64,000 bases of DNA from Thermodesulfobacteriota bacterium (lineage in GTDB: Bacteria; Desulfobacterota; Desulfobaccia; Desulfobaccales; 0-14-0-80-60-11), in the NCBI GenBank assembly GCA_040757175.1, contig JBFLXM010000032.1, positions 7,448 through 71,447 of the forward strand, read 5' to 3'. Made by a program: the position numbers and the translations under genes. Numbering within the stretch: position 1 is the stretch's first letter; every line of letters begins with the position of its first letter. This document shows positions 3,476-55,154 of the stretch, one piece after another. The notes below the pieces were generated by a model, which was given only the letters and a program-made list of their open reading frames with translations, was not told the DNA's origin and made no database searches.

Positions 3476-3961
3476 ATGCAACTTGTGGTGGGCGTCGCCG
3501 ATATGAAGATCGGCAACCAGGCGGAACAAGTGATTATTACCCATGCCCTGGGGTCGTGCATCGGCGTGGCGATCTATGATCCCCACGTCAGAGTGGGCGG
3601 TCTCCTCCATTATATGCTGCCGGAGTCCTCCTTGGATGAAGAAAAAAGCCGGGAGAACCCTTTCATGTTTGCGGACACCGGCATTCCCAGACTCTTCAAG
3701 GAATGCTACCGCCTGGGCGCTTTGAAGCAGCGGATGCTGGTGAAGGTGGCCGGGGGCAGTCAAGTCCTGGGGGGACCCGAGCATTTCAATATCGGCCGGC
3801 GGAATTATGCGGCCTTACGGAAGATCTTTTTAAAGAACAATGTCCTTATTGGCAAGGAAGATGTGGGTGGGACTAAAGCCAGGACGATGTATCTGGAGAT
3901 CGCCACAGGCAAGGTGTGGGTAAAAATCATCGGTCAAACTCAGACCATTATCGAGTTATAG
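3476..3961 (+). CDS. cheD: Chemoreceptor glutamine deamidase CheD
   Basis: MQLVVGVADMKIG..ITHALGSCIGV..GGLLHYMLP is the conserved CheD core. The ATG at 3476 is preceded by GGAGA. The track's longer ORF overlaps cheR. Confidence 0.85.
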   Translation: MQLVVGVADMKIGNQAEQVIITHALGSCIGVAIYDPHVRVGGLLHYMLPESSLDEEKSRENPFMFADTGIPRLFKECYRLGALKQRMLVKVAGGSQVLGGPEHFNIGRRNYAALRKIFLKNNVLIGKEDVGGTKARTMYLEIATGKVWVKIIGQTQTIIEL

Positions 3962-3973
3962 GAGAACAGGGCC

Positions 3974-4858
3974 ATGAGTCTTGTGCCGCAAGTCCTTAGG
4001 TCATTGAAGAATCTACCGCCATTCCCGATGGTGGCCCAACGGACCTTGGTTCTGCTCAATAAACCGGAGGTGAGCATCCAGGAACTGGTGGAGGTGGTGA
4101 AATTCGACCCCGCCATTACCGCCAACATCCTGCGCATCAGCAATTCCGCTTACTTCGGTTTGCGGCGGGAGATTCATTCGCTGCACCAGGCCCTGCTCCT
4201 GCTGGGCACCCAAGAACTTTTGAAGATCATTATCGCCAGCGGGGCCACCCGCCTTTTCTCCGCACCCACTCCTGGCTATTTTACCGAACGCCAGGGCTTA
4301 TGGCGGCACTCCGTGAGCTGCGCCTTGATGGTGGACGTGCTCTCCCGGGAGCTCTCCTTGCCGGATCAAGCTACGGGATTTACCGCGGGGCTGATGCACG
4401 ACATCGGTAAAATTGTGCTGAGCCTCTTTGTGGAGCAGAAATTCCATGAAATCATGGAGGTGGTGGAACAGCAGGGCGTCTCCTTCCAGGCTGCGGAAAA
4501 GATCATCCTGGGAGTAGACCACGCCGAAATGGGGGGAGAGATGGCCCGCATGTGGGATTTTCCCGACCGCCTGCGCCTGGCCATCACCTATCATCACCTG
4601 GATAAACCTGAAGCCTATACCGACGATCTGATCCTGCTTGTTTACCTGGCCGACATCCTTTGTTTGATGTTCGGCCAGGATCTGGGGTCAGACGGCCTGG
4701 CTTATACCGGCTATCCCGAAGTGCTGCGCCACTTTCATTTGCGCGAGCGGAACTTGCAAAAAGTCTTATTGCAATTCGGCAGCGCCTGGGATGAAGCGCA
4801 AATTCTCTTCGGCCTTATGGGACAACAAGATGGCGTACAACGTGCTAATCGTGGATGA
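3974..4858 (+). CDS. HDOD domain protein (HD-related output domain) embedded in the che cluster
   Basis: N-terminal LPPFPMVAQRTLVLLNKPEVSIQELVEVVKFDPAITANILRISNSAYFGL and a later GLMHDIGKIVL are typical HDOD motifs. Confidence 0.8.
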   Translation: MSLVPQVLRSLKNLPPFPMVAQRTLVLLNKPEVSIQELVEVVKFDPAITANILRISNSAYFGLRREIHSLHQALLLLGTQELLKIIIASGATRLFSAPTPGYFTERQGLWRHSVSCALMVDVLSRELSLPDQATGFTAGLMHDIGKIVLSLFVEQKFHEIMEVVEQQGVSFQAAEKIILGVDHAEMGGEMARMWDFPDRLRLAITYHHLDKPEAYTDDLILLVYLADILCLMFGQDLGSDGLAYTGYPEVLRHFHLRERNLQKVLLQFGSAWDEAQILFGLMGQQDGVQRANRG

Positions 4859-5655: not shown

Positions 5656-6696
<1,041 letters not shown>

Positions 6697-30474: not shown

Positions 30475-30852
30475 ATGGGAAAGGTCATCCCTTACGGCGA
30501 TCTGGCCCGGCAGCACCGCCTCAATTTATTGGCGCATAAACGCCGGGAATATCGGGAACGGGAAGACTACCTGGCCGGCCTCAGAAAATTGCTTTTTCAA
30601 GTGGAGGGCCAGATGCGCCAGGCGGAGATGCGGCAGTTGCAAGTCTTCCATGACTTAGCCGAGAGCCTCAAAATTACCCTGGAGTTTCCCAGCCTGGGGG
30701 ATCGGGTGGCCCTGGAGGAGTTTTTCGCCACCGACCCCTTCCTGCAGATTCTCAAGGAATTTCTGGCGGAGCGCCTCAGCCCCGATGAATGTCTGCAAAG
30801 CATCACGGATCTGCGCCAGAAATTGACTGCCCCGGAGGGAGAGGGGGCATAA
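30475..30852 (+). CDS. Hypothetical protein (125 aa)
   Basis: The ATG at 30475 is preceded by GGGAGGG. Helical, charged sequence with no family recognised. Confidence 0.45.
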   Translation: MGKVIPYGDLARQHRLNLLAHKRREYREREDYLAGLRKLLFQVEGQMRQAEMRQLQVFHDLAESLKITLEFPSLGDRVALEEFFATDPFLQILKEFLAERLSPDECLQSITDLRQKLTAPEGEGA

Positions 30853-30967
30853 AAAAAACTGGCCGGGTGGGGGAGGAACCCGGCCAGTCGGTGAAAGGAG
30901 AAAATGGTATATGAACTTTGATTAAGGGGGGGATGTGGGTACCTTAATAAGGGTCATATACTCGCTT
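30851..30967 (-). ncRNA. Candidate sigma54-dependent small RNA, copy 1 (about 115 nt)
   Basis: On the minus strand, the region downstream of the sigma54-like promoter forms a long hairpin. It has an outer stem GTATATGA/TCATATAC, an inner stem ATTAAGG/CCTTAAT and a C-rich apical loop TACCCACATCCCCC. A CU-rich stretch (TTCTCCTTTC) follows, then the terminator CTGGCCGGGT..ACCCGGCCAG plus T8. The 5' end is inferred, not observed. Confidence 0.55.
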
Positions 30968-30976
30968 TATTAAATA

Positions 30977-30992
30977 TGCAGCAACCGTGCCA
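30977..30992 (-). promoter_or_regulatory. Sigma54 (-24/-12) promoter of sRNA copy 1
   Basis: The minus strand reads TGGCACGGTTGCTGCA against the consensus TGGCACG-N4-TTGCW. There is one mismatch, and GG and GC are correctly spaced. Confidence 0.6.
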
Positions 30993-31163
30993 AACTGCGA
31001 CTACTTAATATATTCTGCAATAACAATATGTTATCCAGCAATTAAGCCCGTAGCGAATCCTTTTCAGTTCAATATTTTTTACCGTAGCCAGGTGGATAAT
31101 TTTTCTTCGTAGCTTAATTGATTAATATTACTACCAATAACAAGTTTACAATTATTTTTCCCC

Positions 31164-31280
31164 AAAAAAAAACTGGCCAGGAGGGGGAGGGACCCGGCCA
31201 GTCTCTAGTAGGAGAAATTGGTACATGAACTCCGATTAAGGGGGGGATGTGGGTACCTTAATTAGGGTCACATACTCACC
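31164..31280 (-). ncRNA. Candidate sigma54-dependent small RNA, copy 2 (about 115 nt)
   Basis: Paralogue of copy 1, with roughly 80 percent identity by eye. A 29-nt core is identical (gattaagggggggatgtgggtaccttaat on the plus strand). Substitutions in the outer stem keep pairing through G-U wobbles. Terminator CTGGCCAGG..CCCGGCCAG plus T9. Confidence 0.55.
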
Positions 31281-31289
31281 AATTAAGAA

Positions 31290-31305
31290 TGCAATAACCC
31301 TGCCA
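31290..31305 (-). promoter_or_regulatory. Sigma54 (-24/-12) promoter of sRNA copy 2
   Basis: The minus strand reads TGGCAGGGTTATTGCA against the consensus TGGCACG-N4-TTGCW, with one mismatch. Confidence 0.65.
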
Positions 31306-31490
31306 AAGAGATGAAATTAAAAATACCATTGATTACAGCATGTTGCCTTTTACTAACTTTGACCTCAGTCGTGCTCGGTTCAATATTTTTTACTAGAACT
31401 TCCCCCAATAGACAAATTTCTGTAATCACAGTTTGGCGGGGGGCTACGGGAAGGGACCGGATTCCCCCTCCTCCTGCCTCAGCAGGTGCC

Positions 31491-33455
31491 TCAACGGCTC
31501 AGAAGCAGGTGGCCTGGGGGCCGGACTTCCACCTGGAAGCCCGGTAGAATCAAGAGGGTAGCGTAATCCTCCACCACCAGGGCCGGCCCGGAGAAAGTTT
31601 CTCCGGGTTGCAGTTCCCGGCGTTCATAAAAAGGCAGGGTGGCCGGGCCCTCCGGCAGCCACACCGTGCCCTCAGGCGGCAGGAAAGAGCGGCGGGAGGA
31701 GGGGGAGGTCATCCCGGGCAGGGCCGCCGTGGACGCGGGAGCCTGGAAGTTTAGGCGCAGGCTCAGGACTTCCACTTCCCGGTGGGGAAAATCATGACCA
31801 TAGAGGTGCCGGTGGCGGCCATGGAAGGTGGGCAGGAAATCCGGGCGGCAAGGCACGGTCAGGGTGTCGCTCTGGCCCCGGTAGCGCAACTCCAGCTCTC
31901 CGGACATGGTCAGCCCTGCAACCGGCAACCCTTCCCGTTCCATCTCCGCCAACCCTTTCATTTTAAGAGACTGGACCTCCTGCTTAAGTCTGTCCCAGGT
32001 CAGCTTGGGGCCGGATAAGAGCAGGGTCCGGGTCCAATCCCGTCGGAATCCCGCCAGAGCCATGCCCAGGGCGGAAAGCACCCCGGCCTGGGCCGGGACC
32101 AGGATGCGGCGCAGGTCCAACTCCAGGGCCAACTCACATACTTGCAAACCGGCAGCCCCCCCGAAACAGCAGAGGGTGAAATCCCGGGGGTCAAAGCCCC
32201 GCTCCAGGCTCACGGCCCGCAGGGCCTTGGCCATGTGGCTGTTGGCCACCCGGATGATGCCCAGGGCCAACTCTTCCGGGGCCACCCCAAAAACGGACCC
32301 CAGCCGGGTCAGGGCCCGGGCCGTGGCCTCAGGGTCGAGGGGCATGCGGCCGCCCAAAAAGTTTTCCGGCCGCAGTCTGCCCAAAAAAAGATGGGCGTCG
32401 GTTACCGTGACTTCGTCCCCCCGGCCGTAACAGACCGGCCCGGGGTCGGCTCCCGCACTCCGGGGCCCCACCCGCAGCGCCCCGCCCCGGTCCTGAAAGG
32501 CAATGGAGCCGCCCCCCGCGCCCACGGTATGGATGTCCATCACCGGAATACCCAGGGGGTAGCCCTCCAGGAGATATTCCCGGGTAAAGGGAATCTCCCC
32601 GGCCAGGAGGGCCACGTCCGTGGAAGTCCCCCCCATGTCCAGGGTGAGGAGATTGGGTATGCCCAGTTCCTGCCCCAGGCGCCAGGCCCCATAGACCCCC
32701 CCGGCGGGACCCGAAAGGATGGTCTGCAGCCCCCAGGCCCCGGCCTGGGACGCGGGCAGAAAACCGCCGTTCGACTGCTGGATGAAAAGCGACACCCCGG
32801 GCAGCCGCCGGGACCAGTCCGCCAGATATTGTTGGATTACCGGCCCCAGATAGGCGTTCAAGACCGTGGCCGCGCTGCGTTCATACTCCCGGACTTCCGG
32901 CAAGATGCAGTTGGAGAGGGACAAAGGGATTCCCAAGTCCGCCAGGGCCGCGGCCAGGCGCTCTTCATGACGCGGGTAGGCATAGGCGTGGAGCAGGCAG
33001 ACGGCCACGGCTTCCGGGGCCAGTTCCCGGACCCGGGCCTTTACCCGGGAGATTTCTGCATTAGTCAAAGAGATGAGCGCCGCGCCGTCAGCCCCCAGGC
33101 GCTCCTGAACCCCCAGAACCCGCTCCCGGGGCAGGATCTCCGGGGGCTTTTCCACCATCAGGTTGAAGAGCTCCGGCCGGGTCTGGCGGCCGATGAACAA
33201 AACATCCTCAAACCCGGCGGTGGTGAGCAGGGCCACCCTGGCCCCTTTTCTCTCCAAAAAGGCGTTGGTGCCCCGGGTGGTGCCGTGGACCACCTCCACC
33301 CCGGCCAGGCCCTGGGGCCGCATCTCCGCCACCCCTGAGAGAATGGCTTGCAAGGGGTCTACCGGCGTGGAAGGCACTTTATGCACCCACCCCTCCCCTT
33401 CCTCCAGGAAGACGAAGTCAGTGAAGGTGCCGCCGCTGTCAATGCCGAGTCGCAT
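31491..33455 (-). CDS. Hydantoinase/oxoprolinase family protein (HyuA-like)
   Basis: MRLGIDSGGTFTDFVFL.. N-terminal ASKHA motif, DMGGTSTDV and HTVGAGGGSIA blocks. Start set at the ATG at 33455; the track extension runs into a REP element. Confidence 0.85.
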   Translation of the reverse strand: MRLGIDSGGTFTDFVFLEEGEGWVHKVPSTPVDPLQAILSGVAEMRPQGLAGVEVVHGTTRGTNAFLERKGARVALLTTAGFEDVLFIGRQTRPELFNLMVEKPPEILPRERVLGVQERLGADGAALISLTNAEISRVKARVRELAPEAVAVCLLHAYAYPRHEERLAAALADLGIPLSLSNCILPEVREYERSAATVLNAYLGPVIQQYLADWSRRLPGVSLFIQQSNGGFLPASQAGAWGLQTILSGPAGGVYGAWRLGQELGIPNLLTLDMGGTSTDVALLAGEIPFTREYLLEGYPLGIPVMDIHTVGAGGGSIAFQDRGGALRVGPRSAGADPGPVCYGRGDEVTVTDAHLFLGRLRPENFLGGRMPLDPEATARALTRLGSVFGVAPEELALGIIRVANSHMAKALRAVSLERGFDPRDFTLCCFGGAAGLQVCELALELDLRRILVPAQAGVLSALGMALAGFRRDWTRTLLLSGPKLTWDRLKQEVQSLKMKGLAEMEREGLPVAGLTMSGELELRYRGQSDTLTVPCRPDFLPTFHGRHRHLYGHDFPHREVEVLSLRLNFQAPASTAALPGMTSPSSRRSFLPPEGTVWLPEGPATLPFYERRELQPGETFSGPALVVEDYATLLILPGFQVEVRPPGHLLLSR

Positions 33456-33481
33456 AATTTTTAAGTGAGCGATGAGCGGAT

Positions 33482-33545
33482 GTAGGGTGGGCACGGCCCA
33501 CCAGCAGACTGCATTCTTAAAAAGGTGGGCCATGCCCACCCTACA
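33482..33545. repeat. Inverted pair of REP hairpins (GTAGGGTGGGCA..GCCCACC family)
   Basis: gtagggtgggcacggcccacc .. ggtgggccatgcccaccctaca. Family members are also at 52881-52903 and 55211-55233. Confidence 0.8.
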
Positions 33546-33624: not shown

Positions 33625-34055
33625 ATGAGCGATCTTTGTGATTTTCCCCAGTTGTTGGCCGGGCAGGGAGTGAAGGCCACGGCCTTGCGCCTGGCCGTCC
33701 TGGAAGTCTTGGGGGCTGCGCCCCGGGCCTTGCGGGCCCAGGAAATCATGGAGGCGATCCGGGCCCGCCGCCGGGTGAATAAGGTGACCGTTTACCGCAT
33801 CCTGGACGATTTCACCCGCCGGGGCATTCTCCGGCGTCTGGCCGTGGAGGACCGGGCCTCCCTCTATGAGCTGGCCTGCGAACACCACCCGCCCCACCCC
33901 CATTTCCAGTGCCGGGAGTGCGGCCAGGTGCAGTGCCTGGAGCCCGCGCCCCTGGAGCGCATGTGGGCGGAACTTAAAGGCCCCCTGGGCAATCGCGCCG
34001 ATCGCATCGAGGTCCGGGTAGCCGGGGTGTGCCATAAGTGCCGGGAGACGAGTTG

Positions 34056-34056
<1 letters not shown>
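33625..34056 (+). CDS. zur: Fur-family metalloregulator (Zur by context)
   Basis: ..LRLAVLEVLGAAPRALRAQEIMEAI..VNKVTVYRILDDFTRRGIL.. winged helix plus HFQCRECGQVQC..CHKC metal sites. It heads the znu operon. Confidence 0.8.
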
Positions 34057-35075
<1,019 letters not shown>

Positions 35076-35082
35076 GGGTTCC

Positions 35083-35859
35083 GTGGCGCAATTAGCAGTG
35101 GACATTCATGACCTCCTGGTCTCCTATAACGGCGTGCCCGCGCTGGAGGAGATCAATTTGGAGATCGAGACCGGCAAATACGTGGGGGTCCTGGGCCCCA
35201 ACGGCGCGGGCAAGAGCACCCTGCTGAAGGTGATCCTGGGCCTGATCCCGCCCACCCGGGGCCGGGTCCTGGTGTTCGGGGAAGCCCCCCAAAAATTGCG
35301 GCGCCGGGGGGAAGTGCTGGGATATCTCCCCCAGCGGCCCCTGGGAAACCCCCATTTCCCGGTGACGGTGCTGGACATGGTGCTCATGGGCCGCTACGGC
35401 CGGGTGGGCCTCCTGCGCCGGCCCGGGTCTCAGGATCGGGAGATCGCCAGGAAAAACCTGGAGCGGGTGGGCATCCCCCATCTGGCGAAGAGGGCCATCG
35501 GCGAGATCTCCGGAGGGGAGCAGCAGCGGGTCTTTATCGCCCGGGCCCTATGCGTAGAGCCCCGGCTCCTGGTCTTGGACGAGCCCACCGTCTCCTTAGA
35601 CGCCTGCGCCCAGGACGATGTTTTTGAACTGGTAAACAGGCTCAAGGAAGAGTTGAACCTCACGGTGCTCATGGTCTCCCACGACATCGGCGGCGTGGCC
35701 CGCCACGTGGACGACATCGTCTGTATCAACCGCCGCATCCATGTGCATCAGGCCCCCCCCATCGGCCGCCTGGGTCTGGAGAGCGCGTTCGGCTGCAGCG
35801 TGGAGTACCTCTTCCACGGAGAGATTCCGCACCGGGTGGTGAAGGTGCAAGATGACTGA
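35083..35859 (+). CDS. znuC: Zinc ABC transporter ATP-binding protein
   Basis: Walker A GPNGAGKST, signature SGGEQQRV, Walker B LLVLDEP. Confidence 0.9.
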   Translation: MAQLAVDIHDLLVSYNGVPALEEINLEIETGKYVGVLGPNGAGKSTLLKVILGLIPPTRGRVLVFGEAPQKLRRRGEVLGYLPQRPLGNPHFPVTVLDMVLMGRYGRVGLLRRPGSQDREIARKNLERVGIPHLAKRAIGEISGGEQQRVFIARALCVEPRLLVLDEPTVSLDACAQDDVFELVNRLKEELNLTVLMVSHDIGGVARHVDDIVCINRRIHVHQAPPIGRLGLESAFGCSVEYLFHGEIPHRVVKVQDD

Positions 35860-36670
35860 ACTGCTGTCCCTGGGCTTCCTGCAGCGGGCGCTGTTGGCGG
35901 GGATTATGGTGAGCCTGCTGTGCGGGGTGCTCTCCGTCTTCGTGATCCTGCGGCGCATGGCCTTCATCGGCGTGGGCATCTCCCATTCCGCGTTCGGGGG
36001 GGTGGCCCTGGGCTTTCTGCTGGCCGTTGATCCCCTGTGGACCGGGGTCGGCTTTTCGGTGTTGGTGGCCCTGGCTATTGAGTGGGCCCAAACCCACAGC
36101 CGGGTGGAGGAGGATACCGCCATCGGCATCTTTTTCGCGGCCTCCATGGCCCTGGGGCTGGTTTTTCTCCACCTCTCCCGGACCTATAACGTGGACGTCT
36201 TCGGCTTTCTCTTCGGCAACATCCTGGCCATCGGCCCCCAACAGGTGATGGAAATTTTTTATGTTACCGCCGCGGTCCTGGCCATCACCCTGGCCTTTTA
36301 CAAAGAACTGGTTTTTATAAGCTTTGATGAAGAAATGGCCTGGGTCAGCGGGGTGCCGGTCCGGGCTTTGCGCTATCTGTTCCTGGTGATGCTGGCCCTG
36401 GTGGTCATCATCTCCATCTACCTGGTGGGCATCGTCCTGGTCTCGGCCCTGCTGGTGATCCCCGGGGCCACCGCCCAGAACCTGACCGGGCATATCCGCA
36501 GCATGATCATCGCCTCCACCGCGGTGGCCGTGGGCTGCGTGGCCGGCGGGCTCTGGCTCTCCTACCTCCTGGATTTTCCCTCCGGGGCCACCATCGTGCT
36601 GCTGCTGGCGCTGCTCTACCTCCTAACCACCGCCGCGCCCTGGGTCCGTTCCCACCTGGTGAAGGCTTGA
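35852..36670 (+). CDS. znuB: Zinc ABC transporter permease
   Basis: 272-aa polytopic membrane protein of the ABC-3 type. It overlaps the znuC stop by 8 nt. Confidence 0.88.
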   Translation: MTELLSLGFLQRALLAGIMVSLLCGVLSVFVILRRMAFIGVGISHSAFGGVALGFLLAVDPLWTGVGFSVLVALAIEWAQTHSRVEEDTAIGIFFAASMALGLVFLHLSRTYNVDVFGFLFGNILAIGPQQVMEIFYVTAAVLAITLAFYKELVFISFDEEMAWVSGVPVRALRYLFLVMLALVVIISIYLVGIVLVSALLVIPGATAQNLTGHIRSMIIASTAVAVGCVAGGLWLSYLLDFPSGATIVLLLALLYLLTTAAPWVRSHLVKA

Positions 36671-36769: not shown

Positions 36770-37294
36770 GTGAAATATCGCGCGCTAATAGCCTTAATGG
36801 CTTTCCTGCTATTACTCGTTTGGGGATGCGGAGGACCCACGCCGGAGAAGGCCAAGGCCACCCTGGTCAACGCCCAGGGCCAGAAGGTGGGCGAAGCCCA
36901 ATTAGTGGAGACCCCCCATGGCGTCAAAATCACCCTCAAGGTGGAAAATCTGCCCCCGGGAGTGCATGCCTTCCATATCCATGAAAAAGGGGATTGCCAT
37001 TGCCCGGATTTTATGAGCAGTGGGGGCCACTTCAATCCCTTCGGTAAAAAGCATGGCCTGAAAAATCAGGAGGGACCCCACGCCGGCGACCTTCCCAACC
37101 TGGTGGTGGGAGAGGACGGCAAAGAGACTCTGGAGGTCATAGCCTCCCGGGTGACCCTGAAGCCGGGGAAGAATTCCCTGCTGCAACCCGGGGGCACCTC
37201 TCTGATGATCCATGCCAACCCCGATGATTACCTGACCGATCCCGCGGGCAATGCCGGACCCCGCATCGCTTGCGGGACGATTATTAAGCAGTAA
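36770..37294 (+). CDS. sodC: Periplasmic Cu,Zn superoxide dismutase
   Basis: Signal/lipobox (LLLVWGCG), HAFHIHEKGDC, GGHFNP and GPHAGDLPNL copper/zinc ligand blocks. Confidence 0.9.
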   Translation: MKYRALIALMAFLLLLVWGCGGPTPEKAKATLVNAQGQKVGEAQLVETPHGVKITLKVENLPPGVHAFHIHEKGDCHCPDFMSSGGHFNPFGKKHGLKNQEGPHAGDLPNLVVGEDGKETLEVIASRVTLKPGKNSLLQPGGTSLMIHANPDDYLTDPAGNAGPRIACGTIIKQ

Positions 37295-38119: not shown

Positions 38120-39949
<1,830 letters not shown>

Positions 39950-39965
39950 AGTCGCCTCTCCTGAA

Positions 39966-40048
39966 GTGGTCAGTGGCCAGTGGTCAGTAGTCAGTAAAAA
40001 ATAGGCTGCAATCTTTACTGACCACTGGCCACTGATCACTGCTCACTG
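39966..40048. repeat. Inverted pair of heptamer arrays (GGTCAGT-type arm / ACTGACC-type arm)
   Basis: gtggtcagtggccagtggtcagtagtcagta .. tactgaccactggccactgatcactgctcactg. It fills the glmU-glmS intergenic gap; the right arm ends 1 nt from the glmU stop. Confidence 0.88.
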
Positions 40049-40049
40049 T

Positions 40050-41447
40050 CTATTCTTCCTTCTTCTTGCCGATGAGCCGCCGCTCCAGGTTTACCTGCCG
40101 GGCCCGGGAGATGCCCAGCTTGCCCGGAGGCACGTCCTTGGTGATGGTGGAGCCCGCGCCCACGTAGGCCCCGGCCCCGATGGTCACCGGGGCCACCAAG
40201 GAAGTATTGCTGCCGATGAAGGCCCCCTCTTCAATGGTGGTCTTATGCTTCCTGACGCCGTCGTAGTTGCAGGTAATGGTGCCCGCGCCCACGTTGGTGC
40301 CGGCCCCCACCTCCGCGTCCCCCAGATAGGTGAGATGCCCGGCCTTCACCCCTTCGTGGAGCACCGATTTTTTCACCTCCACGAAGTTGCCCACATGCAC
40401 CTTGGACCGGAGGTCGGCGCCAGGCCGCAGATGCGCAAAAGGACCCATATCAGACCCGGGCCCCAGGCGGCTCTGGTTGATGACGCAGCCCATCTTGATA
40501 TGGACCCCGTTTTCCAGAGTCGAGTCCACGATCTTCACGGTGGGCTCAATGATACAGTTTTCGCCGATAACTGTTTTTCCCTGGAGATAGACGTTGGGAT
40601 AGATCACCGTATCCCGGCCAATGGTCACCAGGGACTCGATATAGGTGGATTCGGGGTCTACCAAGGTGACCCCTTGGTCCATGTGCCGGGCGTTGATTTT
40701 CCGTTTCACGGTCTGGGTGGCCGCGGCCAGCTCGGCCCGGCTGTTGATGCCCATGAGGCTGTCCACGTCCGGGTCGATGAGGGCCTCCACGGCCCGACCC
40801 TGCGCCTTAGCGATGTGAATCAGGTCGGTGAGATAGATTTCCCCGGTGACCGGGCTCTTGGGGATTTTATCCAGCGCTTGCCGGAGAAATGGGGCGTCAA
40901 AGCTGTAAGCCCCGGTGTTGATCTCCCGGATGGATAGAATCTCTGGGCGGTCCTTAGAATCCTTGGACTGAAGCACCGCTCTCACCCGGCCCGCCTCATC
41001 CCGCACCACCCGGCCGTAGTGCAGGCCGTCCGGCAGCACCACGGTCTGAATGGTCACCGCGGCCTGGTGGTTTTTATGCAACCGCCGGAGTGCGCCGATG
41101 CTCTCCCCGGAGATCAAGGGCGCGTCGCCGCAGAGGACCATAACTTCTTGAGTTTCTTCAGGGACCGCAGCCATGGCCACCTGCACCGCGTGGCCGGTCC
41201 CCAACTGCGGCTCCTGGACCACGAAGCGCACCGGGTAATTCTTCAGGGCCTCCTGGACCTTCTCAGCGTGATAACCCACCACCACCAGGATATCGTCAAT
41301 TCCCAAATCGATAAGGGTATCCAGGAGGTAGGCGATCATGGGCCGGCCCAGGATTTGATGCAGGACCTTGGGCTGGCTGGATTTCATGCGGGTCCCCTGC
41401 CCCGCGGCCAGGATGACGGCGGTGATTTTGTCGGTCAACATCTCCAT
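40050..41447 (-). CDS. glmU: Bifunctional UDP-N-acetylglucosamine pyrophosphorylase / GlcN-1-P N-acetyltransferase
   Basis: AVILAAGQGTRMKS nucleotidyltransferase motif and C-terminal left-handed beta-helix hexapeptide repeats. Confidence 0.95.
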   Translation of the reverse strand: MEMLTDKITAVILAAGQGTRMKSSQPKVLHQILGRPMIAYLLDTLIDLGIDDILVVVGYHAEKVQEALKNYPVRFVVQEPQLGTGHAVQVAMAAVPEETQEVMVLCGDAPLISGESIGALRRLHKNHQAAVTIQTVVLPDGLHYGRVVRDEAGRVRAVLQSKDSKDRPEILSIREINTGAYSFDAPFLRQALDKIPKSPVTGEIYLTDLIHIAKAQGRAVEALIDPDVDSLMGINSRAELAAATQTVKRKINARHMDQGVTLVDPESTYIESLVTIGRDTVIYPNVYLQGKTVIGENCIIEPTVKIVDSTLENGVHIKMGCVINQSRLGPGSDMGPFAHLRPGADLRSKVHVGNFVEVKKSVLHEGVKAGHLTYLGDAEVGAGTNVGAGTITCNYDGVRKHKTTIEEGAFIGSNTSLVAPVTIGAGAYVGAGSTITKDVPPGKLGISRARQVNLERRLIGKKKEE

Positions 41448-41530
41448 CCTTTATTTTTATGCACTCATTGTGCCATATTATTAGCCGGAAACGCTCCATA
41501 GGGACTGGAACTCCGCTAACGCGCATATTA

Positions 41531-52938: not shown

Positions 52939-53250
52939 TTAAAACATTCCCGGTATCTGCAAGCCGCCGGTCAGCTTCGCCATTTCCTGGGCCATCATTT
53001 CCCGGGCCCGGTTCAGGGCTTCGTTGACCGCGGCCAGGATCAGGTCCTGGAGCATGTCCACGTCTTCGGGATTGGCCACTTCCGGGTCGATGCGCAGGCT
53101 CACCAGTTCCAGGCGGCCGTTGACCACGGCTTCCACCATGCCGCCGCCGGCTTGGGCGCTCACCGTGCGGTTGCCCACCTCCGCCTGCATTTCCGCCATC
53201 TTGGATTGCAGTTTCTGGGCCTGTTTCATCAGGCCCGCCAGGTTCTTCAC
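52939..53250 (-). CDS. ybaB: Nucleoid-associated protein YbaB/EbfC
   Basis: ..NLAGLMKQAQKLQSKMAEMQ.. and C-terminal GGLQIPGMF. The GTG at 53250 overlaps the dnaX stop (GTGA). Confidence 0.85.
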   Translation of the reverse strand: MKNLAGLMKQAQKLQSKMAEMQAEVGNRTVSAQAGGGMVEAVVNGRLELVSLRIDPEVANPEDVDMLQDLILAAVNEALNRAREMMAQEMAKLTGGLQIPGMF

Positions 53251-54905
53251 TGGGGTTCCTCCTTCCCGCCAGGGCCGGCCCATTGTCCCCCGAAAATCTC
53301 TAAAGCCTGCTGCTTGAGGGTTTCCAGGTCCACCGGCTTTTTGGCGGCAGCCGGGGCTTTCCCGGCCTTCTTGGCCTCCTGGGCCTTGACTTCCAGGGAA
53401 TACTCAGGGCCGAAAAAGGCCCGGGCCAGTTCCTGCAAGCGGGCCTCGTGGCGCGGCCCCGCGGCGTTCCAGGAACGCCCCGCCTCCACCTGCAGGCGAT
53501 GGTCGGCCATGCCCAACAGGCGGCACTTGGAAATCTTGCCGTAGAGGGGGCCGTCGCCGTGCTCCTGGACATAGTTTAAGAATTGCTGCCACCTGGCTTC
53601 CAGATCCCCTTCAGCCCCGGAGACCGGCGGGGTGGGGGGCGAAGATGCGGGGACGTCTGGGTGGGGTGCCGGGGGATCGGGCGCCGGGGAGGCCGCGGCT
53701 GCGGTTACCGGCGCCACGGCTGCCTCAGGGGCCGGGGCCACCTTTCGTCGGGCCCCGGGACCCAGGCGCTTTTCCAGGTCCTCCAGGCGGGCCAGCCAGA
53801 CGCTCACCGGCTGCAGCGGCTCCAGGTGGATCAGACGGAGGAGGAGCACCTCCAGGGCCAGCCGGGGCTGGGGAGCCCGCTTCAGCTCCTCTTCCCCCTG
53901 GAGCAGCACGCTGAGCAGGTTCTGGAGATGGACCGGGGGAGTCTGGCTGGCAAGTTGGGCGATCTCTTCAAACTCCTGGTCGGCCACGGCCACCAGGTGC
54001 CGGGCCTCGGGGTGCAGCCCGGCCAGGAGCAGGTGCCGGGCGTATAAAGTCAAATCCTGGTAAAAGCGCTGCAAATCGTGGCCCTGGTTATAAAGGTCGT
54101 CGATCAACTCCAGGAGCGCCGGTCCCTCGCGCTGGATAATAGCCTGCAAAGCCTTGAGAAGGGACCCCCGCTCCGTGACCCCCAGGATGCGGGCGATTTC
54201 CCCGGCCGTGATCTTCTCGCCCCCAAAAGTCACCACCTGGTCCAGGAACCCCTGGGCGTCCCGGAGGCCCCCTTCTGCCTCCCGGGCGATCAGGGCCAGG
54301 CCCTCGGGGTCGATCTGCCAGCCTTCCTGGCGGGCCAGCTTCTCCAACTGCCCCTGGATCAGGGCCGTGGGAATGCGCCGGAAATCGTAGCGCTGGCAGC
54401 GGGAGAGGATGGTGGCCGGCACCTTGTGGGGCTCGGTGGTGGCCAGGACAAAGACCGCGTGGGCCGGGGGCTCTTCCAGGGTCTTCAACAGGGCGTTGAA
54501 GGCCTCCTTGGTGAGCATGTGCACTTCGTCGATGATATAGACCTTGTATTGGCCGTGGGTGGGGAGATACTTGATCTTCTCCCGGAGGTCCCGGACCTCG
54601 TCGATGCCCCGGTTGGAGGCGCCGTCGATTTCCAGGACGTCCAGGGAGGAGCCGCCGGTGATCTCCCGGCAGGCCTGGCACTGGTTGCAGGGGTGGGGGG
54701 TGGGCCCTTCCTGGCAGTTCAGGGCCTTGGCCAGGATGCGGGCCACCGAGGTCTTGCCCACGCCCCGGGGGCCGCTGAACAAAAAGGCATGGGCGATGCG
54801 GCCCTGGGTGATGGCGTTTTGCAGGGTGCGGGTGATGGGCTCCTGGCCCACCACTTCCTCAAAGTTTTGGGGACGCCATTTCCGGGCCAGGACTTGGTAG
54901 GTCAT
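53247..54905 (-). CDS. dnaX: DNA polymerase III gamma/tau subunit
   Basis: MTYQVLARKWRPQNFEEVVGQE.., Walker A GPRGVGKTS, zinc module CNQCQAC, DEVHML. Confidence 0.95.
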   Translation of the reverse strand: MTYQVLARKWRPQNFEEVVGQEPITRTLQNAITQGRIAHAFLFSGPRGVGKTSVARILAKALNCQEGPTPHPCNQCQACREITGGSSLDVLEIDGASNRGIDEVRDLREKIKYLPTHGQYKVYIIDEVHMLTKEAFNALLKTLEEPPAHAVFVLATTEPHKVPATILSRCQRYDFRRIPTALIQGQLEKLARQEGWQIDPEGLALIAREAEGGLRDAQGFLDQVVTFGGEKITAGEIARILGVTERGSLLKALQAIIQREGPALLELIDDLYNQGHDLQRFYQDLTLYARHLLLAGLHPEARHLVAVADQEFEEIAQLASQTPPVHLQNLLSVLLQGEEELKRAPQPRLALEVLLLRLIHLEPLQPVSVWLARLEDLEKRLGPGARRKVAPAPEAAVAPVTAAAASPAPDPPAPHPDVPASSPPTPPVSGAEGDLEARWQQFLNYVQEHGDGPLYGKISKCRLLGMADHRLQVEAGRSWNAAGPRHEARLQELARAFFGPEYSLEVKAQEAKKAGKAPAAAKKPVDLETLKQQALEIFGGQWAGPGGKEEPQ

Positions 54906-55061: not shown

Positions 55062-55154
55062 TGGCGGAGAGAGAGGGATTCGAACCCTCGGAGCACTTAT
55101 TAGGCACTCACACGATTTCCAATCGTGCCCCTTCAGCCTCTCGGGCATCTCTCC
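55062..55154 (-). tRNA. tRNA-Ser (anticodon GGA), class II with a long variable arm, CCA encoded
   Basis: The reverse complement reads GGAGAGATGCCCGAGAGGCTGAAGGGGCACGATTGGAAATCGTGTGAGTGCCTAATAAGTGCTCCGAGGGTTCGAATCCCTCTCTCTCCGCCA. Anticodon arm CACGA-TTGGAAA-TCGTG; T-arm GAGGG-TTCGAAT-CCCTC. Confidence 0.9.

Follow-up and report, generated by a model that had tools for sequence, protein, structure and literature searches.

Tandem sigma-54-type small RNA genes with putative anti-Shine-Dalgarno motifs, members of a family conserved in Desulfobaccales

Two designs recur among bacterial small RNAs (sRNAs): multi-copy sRNAs driven by sigma-54, and sRNAs with redundant motifs directed against Shine-Dalgarno (SD) sequences. 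Here we analyse a locus that would provide another independent case of both, without introducing a new principle: two tandem units on the minus strand (30851-31394) of a 64,000-nt stretch of DNA, hereafter the window, from a Thermodesulfobacteriota bacterium (GCA_040757175.1, contig JBFLXM010000032.1, positions 7,448-71,447 of the forward strand). The units are very probably real sRNA genes of the sigma-54 type, and comparative tests support what had been proposed in a sequence-only reading of this DNA, namely two paralogous stand-alone sRNA genes. The Desulfobaccales, in which the family is found, oxidise acetate, reduce sulfate and abound in sediments, groundwater and digesters; they are mostly known from metagenomes. 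To our knowledge, next to nothing is known of regulation by RNA in this order, or in Thermodesulfobacteriota generally, and our literature search found no paper joining Desulfobacca with bacterial sRNAs.

Among the known multi-copy sRNAs driven by sigma-54 are CrcZ and CrcY. Another set is formed by the Vibrio Qrr1-5 RNAs of about 100 nt, which carry individual sigma-54 promoters and upstream LuxO sites and are subject to dosage and differential control (PMC4878744, PMC11407668). The qrr genes are, however, dispersed rather than tandem, qrr1 adjoins luxO whereas the present loci have no gene for an enhancer-binding protein (EBP) nearby, and the Qrr seeds are not anti-SD repeats, unlike the seeds that we propose below. 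Pxr of Myxococcus and Cystobacter, i.e. of a former 'deltaproteobacterium', is an sRNA of about 108 nt with a predicted sigma-54 promoter; its orthologs are as conserved as rRNA, and in Cystobacter there are tandem paralogs, each with its own sigma-54 promoter (PMC5568312). It differs from the present sRNA in lying directly downstream of a putative EBP gene, nla19, and in having three stem-loops with other loop motifs. The GlmY and GlmZ promoters found in Enterobacteriaceae combine sigma-54 -24/-12 elements, conserved upstream GlrR sites and, between them, required IHF sites (PMC3045617). This is the same promoter logic as in the present units, but the RNAs and the binding sites are unrelated, and neither GlmY, which acts by protein mimicry, nor GlmZ, which activates glmS, has anti-SD repeats. 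Finally, Dv_sRNA2 of Desulfovibrio vulgaris is the mapped target of the EBP-type two-component response regulator DVU0679, and sigma-54 promoters were predicted in the same study (PMC3333781); compared by its description only, it is likewise an sRNA of a sulfate reducer, but one of a different order, and it lies immediately downstream of the regulator gene.

As to the second design, the only weak resemblances that we found in Rfam were to sRNAs with multiple anti-SD motifs, ar14/NfeR1 and LhrC. LhrC1-5 of Listeria (RF00616), together with C-rich RNAs of the RoxS/RsaE type in Firmicutes, are multi-copy and partly tandem, and carry CU-rich UCCC motifs that pair with SD regions. The layout of the LhrC motifs, visible in the Rfam alignment (hairpin loop, single-stranded stretch, terminator loop), is like that of the present sRNA, but LhrC is controlled by sigma-A and LisR, not by sigma-54, and there is no sequence relationship. 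The closest functional precedent, and the best sub-threshold resemblance in Rfam, is provided by the NfeR1/alpha-r14 'cuckoo' sRNAs of Alphaproteobacteria (RF02344, ar14), in which three anti-SD motifs act redundantly at the ribosome-binding sites of many mRNAs (10.1101/2025.11.14.688489). NfeR1 presents one motif in each of three hairpins, whereas the present sRNA has them in a hairpin loop, a linker and a terminator loop; moreover, predicted RpoD, LsrB and NtrC sites but no sigma-54 promoter are found upstream of NfeR1, and its host phylum is different. When the whole window was searched against Rfam 15 (4227 models), with membership defined as a score at or above the curated gathering threshold, only a tRNA at 55065-55154 was retrieved and neither sRNA unit reached any threshold, in agreement with the sequence-only reading, which had recognised no known family. 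A permissive scan of 30700-31550 gave ar14 as the best match with 31.4 bits (gathering threshold 58.8) and LhrC with 22.1 bits (gathering threshold 110), while Qrr and Pxr were absent from the listing at E<=10. The ar14 alignment leaves hairpin 1 uncovered, spanning linker, terminator and downstream DNA that is not conserved, and there is no homology. Membership through ar14 or LhrC was rejected, the resemblance being sub-threshold and at the level of motifs only. Judged by sequence and structure, the family is new, though its kind is known, and it is homologous to none of the systems compared.

The two units lie in a gap of 638 nt between a convergent gene for a 125-aa protein (30475-30852, +) and a hydantoinase-A gene (31491-33539, -). 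They are offset by 314 bp (30845-30968 and 31159-31282) and align over ~290 nt with 82% column identity, the RNA bodies being near-identical and the spacers diverged, which bears out the tandem duplication of a minus-strand unit of ~313 bp that had been proposed. The order of elements is the same in both: an enhancer-like palindrome, an IHF-like box, a -24/-12 promoter, a body of ~114 nt, a GC hairpin and a run of eight or nine U. A 27-nt core, TTAAGGTACCCACATCCCCCCCTTAAT, occurs exactly twice in the 64 kb (0 expected), and a covariance-model search with the filters off detected no further copy in the window, the next match scoring 18.8 bits on the antisense strand. Each unit, with its own promoter and its own terminator, is by these signals a separate non-coding transcription unit; since the gene downstream is convergent, there is no downstream cistron for the RNA to lead into. 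Every element described by the sequence-only reading was recovered at its place on the minus strand. That reading had overlooked a third C-rich motif in the terminator loop, the separate IHF-like box and the wide conservation of the family.

Copy 1 (30851..30966, -) and copy 2 (31164..31279, -) are each predicted to yield an RNA of ~114 nt, the start of copy 1 being placed 12 nt past the GC of the -12 element. The 5' part of the RNA folds into a two-tier hairpin (hairpin 1, at 30961-30907 and 31275-31221) with an outer stem GUAUAUGA/UCAUAUAC, an inner stem AUUAAGG/CCUUAAU and a C-rich 14-nt loop UACCCACAUCCCCC (30941-30928 and 31255-31242). On its 3' side follow a free CU-rich linker (UUUUCUCCUUUC at 30904-30893 in copy 1, unpaired in the fold; AUUUCUCCU at 31218-31210 in copy 2), a GC hairpin of 12-14 bp (30888-30858 with loop UCCUCCCCC at 30877-30869; ~31202-31172 with loop CCCUCCCCCU) and a U8 (30858-30851) or U9 (31172-31164) tract. 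Both computed folds reproduce what had been drawn by eye, the 14-nt C-rich loop included: the inner stem and the loop are the same in the two copies, and the outer stem of copy 2 is maintained via G-U pairs. Folding energies are -35.5 kcal/mol for copy 1 (z = -7.6) and -38.7 kcal/mol for copy 2 (z = -4.2), and none of 200 shuffles folded as stably as either copy. The intrinsic terminator expected at the end of each unit is present as GC stem and U tract; a simple terminator scan overlooked both hairpins because their loops of 9-11 nt exceed its 8-nt limit.

A covariation test, which the sequence-only reading had recommended, shows that the structure covaries. In a MAFFT alignment 96.9% of the cells are paired and 12 pairs have compensatory changes, with which RNAalifold concurs; in a model-based alignment of 81 copies, where divergent paralogs and Desulfobacca acetoxidans were included, the paired fraction is 96.8% and compensatory changes affect 16 of the 28 pairs (6/10 in helix 1, 3/7 in helix 2 and 7/11 in the terminator, where 99% of the cells are paired). 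None of 500 shuffles scored as high, and when the pairing partners were slid the paired fraction was 27-41%. In two divergent paralogs helix 1 is wholly rewritten, from GUAUAUGAAC/GUUCAUAUAC to CCCUGAAC/GUUCAGGG.

The putative sigma-54-type promoters, TGGCACGGTTGCTGCA for copy 1 (30977..30992, -) and TGGCAGGGTTATTGCA for copy 2 (31290..31305, -), are the only sites in the 64 kb with at most one mismatch to TGGCACG-N4-TTGCW, so that the near-consensus -24/-12 element noted for each unit stands. They are backed by family conservation as well: T[GA]G[CT]A-N7-TGC is matched by 76 of 78 copies, with free variation of the spacer bases, GG at -24 is retained in all copies but four, and the promoter lies 21-24 nt ahead of the start of the RNA model in 72 copies. 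The -24 element reads TAGCAC in L013, L030 and L057, which belong to one lineage, and TGTGCAC in the L033 copy at 2715-2839; the RNA bodies of all four are intact, and these deviant promoters may be weakened or re-wired.

Further upstream lies an activator-type site (upstream activator-type site, UAS), GGTAAAAAATATTGAACT for copy 1 (31066..31083, -; about -100 to -117 from the predicted start) and AGTAAAAAATATTGAACC for copy 2 (31377..31394, -). The copy 1 site is an imperfect palindrome, GTnnAA-N4-TTnnAC, and 31083-31066 and 31394-31377 are the only matches in the window at up to 3 mismatches. Across 67 distinct upstream regions the family consensus, yGGTAwAAAwwaTTGAACy, has 7 invariant positions. 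The distances from the start of the UAS to TGGCA cluster at 80-81, 88-91 and 100-103 nt, i.e. in steps of ~10 bp; because these amount to one helical turn, we read the UAS as an enhancer facing the polymerase. In a form suited to a regulon search, the module is GGTAWAAAWWWTTGAACY followed by TGGCA-N7-TGC 80-100 nt on. Between UAS and promoter, 41-42 nt upstream of TGGCA, the family has a box TAACwTATTGAwA, represented in copy 1 by GATAACATATTGTTAT (31020..31035, -), which on the opposite strand has 1 mismatch to the IHF consensus WATCAANNNNTTR, and in copy 2 by the weaker GCAACATGCTGTAATC (31331..31346, -), with 2-3 mismatches. On that strand the IHF consensus is found with at most one mismatch in 33 of 73 upstream regions (45%), against 9% of shuffles; in the other orientation there is no enrichment in the family upstream regions. 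The sequence-only reading had seen a single AT-rich motif, GTTCAATATTTTTTAC, upstream of both promoters and offered it as an IHF or activator site. Its presence at both copies holds, and of the two roles the second is more likely, since the motif is an imperfect palindrome with helical-phase spacing at -100 to -117, as would suit an EBP site. A phased UAS and an IHF-like box between UAS and promoter make up, as far as sequence signals go, the classical enhancer - IHF - sigma-54 arrangement.

The conservation of the units was followed in two ways. A protein-anchored sample comprised seven contigs from metagenomes or metagenome-assembled genomes (MAGs; five distinct sequences), with a 125-aa protein 74-90% identical to that of the window. 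In all seven the gene order is the same (RNR, hisG, hisI, the 125-aa gene, the gap, hydantoinase, a Fur-family gene, znuA) and both tandem units are present, each comprising promoter, upstream motif, body and terminator; the intervening DNA cannot be aligned. The pair is retained where the 125-aa protein is 69% identical; at ~60% identity a single unit is found at the same place, even without the hydantoinase gene. The homologues of the 125-aa protein are labelled Desulfobaccales, Thermodesulfobacteriota or 'Deltaproteobacteria' by their sources. The other approach took one genome for each species of bacteria and archaea and looked for the three C-rich motifs in their order; 68 stretches were returned. 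Nine of these are chance matches from unrelated phyla, which lack the other elements and were rejected by the covariance model too; the remaining 59, from 57 species-representative genomes, are all from Desulfobaccales-type MAGs and have the full architecture. In most cases the RNA occupies the same place by synteny. One full-scoring copy (134.6 bits) is on a 1.3-Mb contig, L041 (CAWDIB010000004.1), labelled 'uncultured Chloroflexia bacterium'. The label is probably wrong; the contig also carries Fur-family and znuA genes 56-67% identical to those of the window.

A covariance model built from 70 distinct bodies scores copy 1 at 146.8 bits and copy 2 at 120 bits, with nothing else in the window above 19, and adds tandem copies unseen by the pattern, so that 15 loci have arrays of 2-3 copies. 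The largest array seen, at 3920-4851 (+) of L071, has three copies at a spacing of ~380-430 bp, and UAS, IHF-like box and promoter are present separately for each; these duplications look independent of the one in the lineage of the window. The model also detects one copy in the type strain of a cultured species, Desulfobacca acetoxidans DSM 11109 (98.5 bits; 6446-6566 (-) of L082, i.e. CP002629.1 ~1,780,584-1,780,704, +), at the same syntenic position and with the promoter TGGCATGGACCCTGCA. All three motifs differ there (loop CUCCAAUUCCCCCC, linker UUCUCCCC, terminator loop GCCUCCCCCG), the upstream palindrome is reversed and stands ~105 nt before TGGCA, and the IHF-like box is 52, not 42, nt upstream. 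Since the exact pattern had overlooked this copy, the family must be wider than the scan shows.

Within the loci the RNA changes more slowly than the housekeeping genes beside it. Across the 32 loci in which hisI and hisG are present too, the RNA core (~100 nt) is on average 95.3% identical to copy 1, a figure to be read with 24 of its ~100 positions pre-fixed by the scan pattern in the genome-scan loci; in the protein-anchored loci, which like the paralogs are unaffected by the pattern, core identity is likewise 95-98%. In the same 32 loci the DNA of hisI is 80.7% and that of hisG 84.7% identical, and the spacer between promoter and UAS gives no BLAST alignment. Relatives devoid of promoter, hairpin and terminator had been named beforehand as evidence that would speak against sRNA genes; what is seen is the opposite, i.e. 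an architecture that is kept while its surroundings diverge.

Three single-stranded C/U-rich motifs suggest how the RNA may act: the hairpin-1 loop CAUCCCCCCC, the linker UUCUCCUUUC (UUCUCCU), which we take to resemble the 3' tail of 16S rRNA, and the terminator loop CCUCCCCC. All three are unpaired in the minimum-free-energy and consensus folds, and are complementary to SD sequences of the GGAGG/GGGGG type. In the divergent paralogs, where the hairpin-1 loop has CCCUCC, and in D. acetoxidans, all of which fall outside the scan pattern, stems and loop are altered; what is retained is the C-richness of this loop and of the terminator loop, and UUCUCC in the linker. The C-rich motifs of anti-SD type that the sequence-only reading had pointed out are, in this respect, supported.

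We put at about 60% the probability that the units encode a sigma-54/EBP-dependent, trans-acting sRNA which represses translation via redundant anti-SD pairing. An EBP would bind the palindromic site ~105 nt upstream, and an IHF-type bend at about -60 would bring it to the sigma-54 RNA polymerase at the -24/-12 promoter. The RNA would start ~5 nt before hairpin 1 and end at the intrinsic terminator. Its three C/U-rich motifs would then pair redundantly with G-rich SD regions of several mRNAs, which would block ribosome binding and probably promote mRNA decay. The 3' end of the RNA, a hairpin with a U-tail, has the form usual for Hfq-type modules. With two copies the dosage could be higher, and their slightly different promoters and stems could provide a differential tuning. 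The transcriptional part of this scheme (EBP, IHF-type bend, sigma-54) is read from DNA signals, and the mode of action from the anatomy of the RNA and from analogy.

A number of points weigh against such a repressor. The start and the end of the RNA, and even its expression, are predictions from the DNA. Three members of one lineage have AG, not GG, at -24. Six-frame translations revealed no EBP gene (GAFTGA or ESELFGH) in the window or in any of ~80 loci; the activator is not encoded nearby. Target searches, which covered 64 kb of the source genome and related loci of ~8 kb, gave no support either: by duplex energies, the initiation regions of the neighbours (the 125-aa protein, the Fur-family gene, znuABC, hisGI, hydantoinase and RNR) show no better pairing with the seeds than with their reversed controls, and 567 kb of related DNA contains, outside the sRNA genes, no extended complement of loop 1, linker or terminator loop. 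Finally, it is ~100 nt that are near-invariant, not just seeds of 7-12 nt, and this is more constraint than seeds usually explain. Since the whole body is affected, there is room left for a protein partner. One may also speculate, though we give it little credence, that the RNA is an order-wide, near-invariant mimic of the 16S 3' tail with three anti-SD motifs, made only upon action of an EBP, which gates translation globally or titrates a protein that binds C-rich RNA. As to the signal, the divergent control region that 12 relatives share with a Fur-family/znuABC operon suggests that it might be linked to metal status.

The target scan of the window also had a misleading outcome. The top match of a naive version (53661, +) was a spurious open reading frame (ORF) antisense to the proline-rich part of dnaX, and was discarded. 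Among the predicted duplexes with the sRNA, the most stable (-60 kcal/mol) is the one formed by the G-rich stretch at 53600-53700 (+), antisense to the proline/alanine-rich linker of the DNA polymerase III tau/gamma subunit gene dnaX (53247-54905); it is not a translation start, and such a duplex is a typical false positive for C-rich seeds.

The same features can be accounted for in other ways. The RNA could be a decoy or sponge comparable to CsrB/RsmZ or CrcZ (with other motifs), whose C-rich loops would bind and titrate an RNA-binding protein, or capture RNAs rich in G, with no pairing of the RNA itself to ribosome-binding sites. Decoy RNAs typically look like this, with three repeated motifs in each RNA and two to three RNAs at a locus, and the near-invariance of the body beyond what seeds alone need, as well as the lack of an mRNA target nearby, would fit. 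However, the motifs match the anti-SD sequence and thus have an obvious nucleic-acid partner, and the sequence of loop 1 shifts in the paralogs and in D. acetoxidans yet stays C-rich, which fits degenerate pairing better; in addition, we know of no bacterial global regulator that recognises CCUCC or C-runs in such a manner. A decoy is, on balance, unlikely. A good deal less probable is a cis-acting element, in which the hairpins would be terminators, 3'-untranslated regions or antisense elements of the convergent 125-aa gene or of the hydantoinase gene and the promoters fortuitous. It is true that the terminator of copy 1 and the stop codon of the convergent gene are within a few nt of each other, and that the RNA adjoins the 125-aa gene in about half of the loci. 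But the T-run is on the minus strand only, which makes the hairpin a poor terminator for a plus-strand gene; in some relatives the RNA is ~60-170 nt past the end of the 125-aa gene, other loci lack both this gene and the hydantoinase gene in the stretch examined, and in every context promoter, UAS and IHF-like box are conserved along with the RNA.

That the units serve to encode a small protein is more doubtful still. An 11-residue peptide, MTLIKVPTSPP, could be read from an AUG in GUAUAUGA, within hairpin 1, and its frame is intact in 35 of 70 distinct members; in the other half it is cut to at most 4 codons, or the AUG is lost, through non-triplet indels between the stems. Since the ORF is intact in only half of the members, we regard the RNA as non-coding and reject the small ORF, which moreover has no SD upstream and whose AUG and most codons lie inside conserved, covarying stems. 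The least probable explanation is a repetitive or mobile intergenic element (REP/MITE-like) devoid of a regulatory role. Tandem repeats, and a copy number that goes from 1 to 3 between genomes, are what one would expect of such an element, but the 64 kb contain just two copies and no weaker ones, the location keeps its synteny across an order, terminal inverted repeats and target duplications are absent, and the sequence evolves more slowly than housekeeping genes.

The family thus offers a full regulatory module that is definable by computation, composed of enhancer, IHF-like bend, sigma-54 promoter, RNA and terminator. Because it evolves more slowly than the adjoining housekeeping genes, this module probably stands high in the regulatory hierarchy. 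As D. acetoxidans carries a copy, expression, activator and targets are open to direct experiment.

Two neighbours, the 125-aa gene and, in 12 loci, a Fur-family gene, accompany the RNA persistently, which may reflect function or no more than conserved gene order. The 125-aa protein belongs to a clade-restricted group of 120-125-aa proteins with 268 homologues, all of Desulfobaccales type, in which a PxxGDR motif and one Cys are among the invariant residues. It was matched to no Pfam or NCBIfam family and to no PDB sequence. Its confident AlphaFold model (pLDDT 86) consists of a 58-residue helix and three short helices, and has no PDB fold match at E<=0.001. On the other side of the hydantoinase gene the window has a Fur-family regulator gene followed by znuABC (33625-36670, +) and, at 36770-37294, by a gene for a Cu/Zn superoxide dismutase. 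In 12 related loci (L014, L019, L022, L025, L032, L043, L046, L049, L053, L055, L059 and L065) the Fur-family gene is divergent from the sRNA at a distance of only 290-410 bp; in the lineage of the window, the hydantoinase gene was apparently inserted between the two. Many aligned upstream regions show by eye a further conserved palindrome-like motif, TGTGATTACA in the window (31421..31430, -) and TGTAATTACA..ATAAGTTAA in its family form, at a distance of about 45-55 nt upstream from the UAS. It is similar to AT-rich palindromes of the Fur/Zur type, and may serve either the divergent Fur-family gene, as its operator, or the sRNA promoter, as a second input.

In enterobacteria, glmS is under the control of two sRNAs driven by sigma-54, GlmY and GlmZ. 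In the window, the only other exact match to TGGCAY-N6-TGCW, TGGCACAATGAGTGCA at 41460-41475 (-), is ~13 nt upstream of the SD/ATG of glmU (40050-41447), after which comes glmS (38120-40039), and may be a sigma-54 promoter for a glmUS operon.

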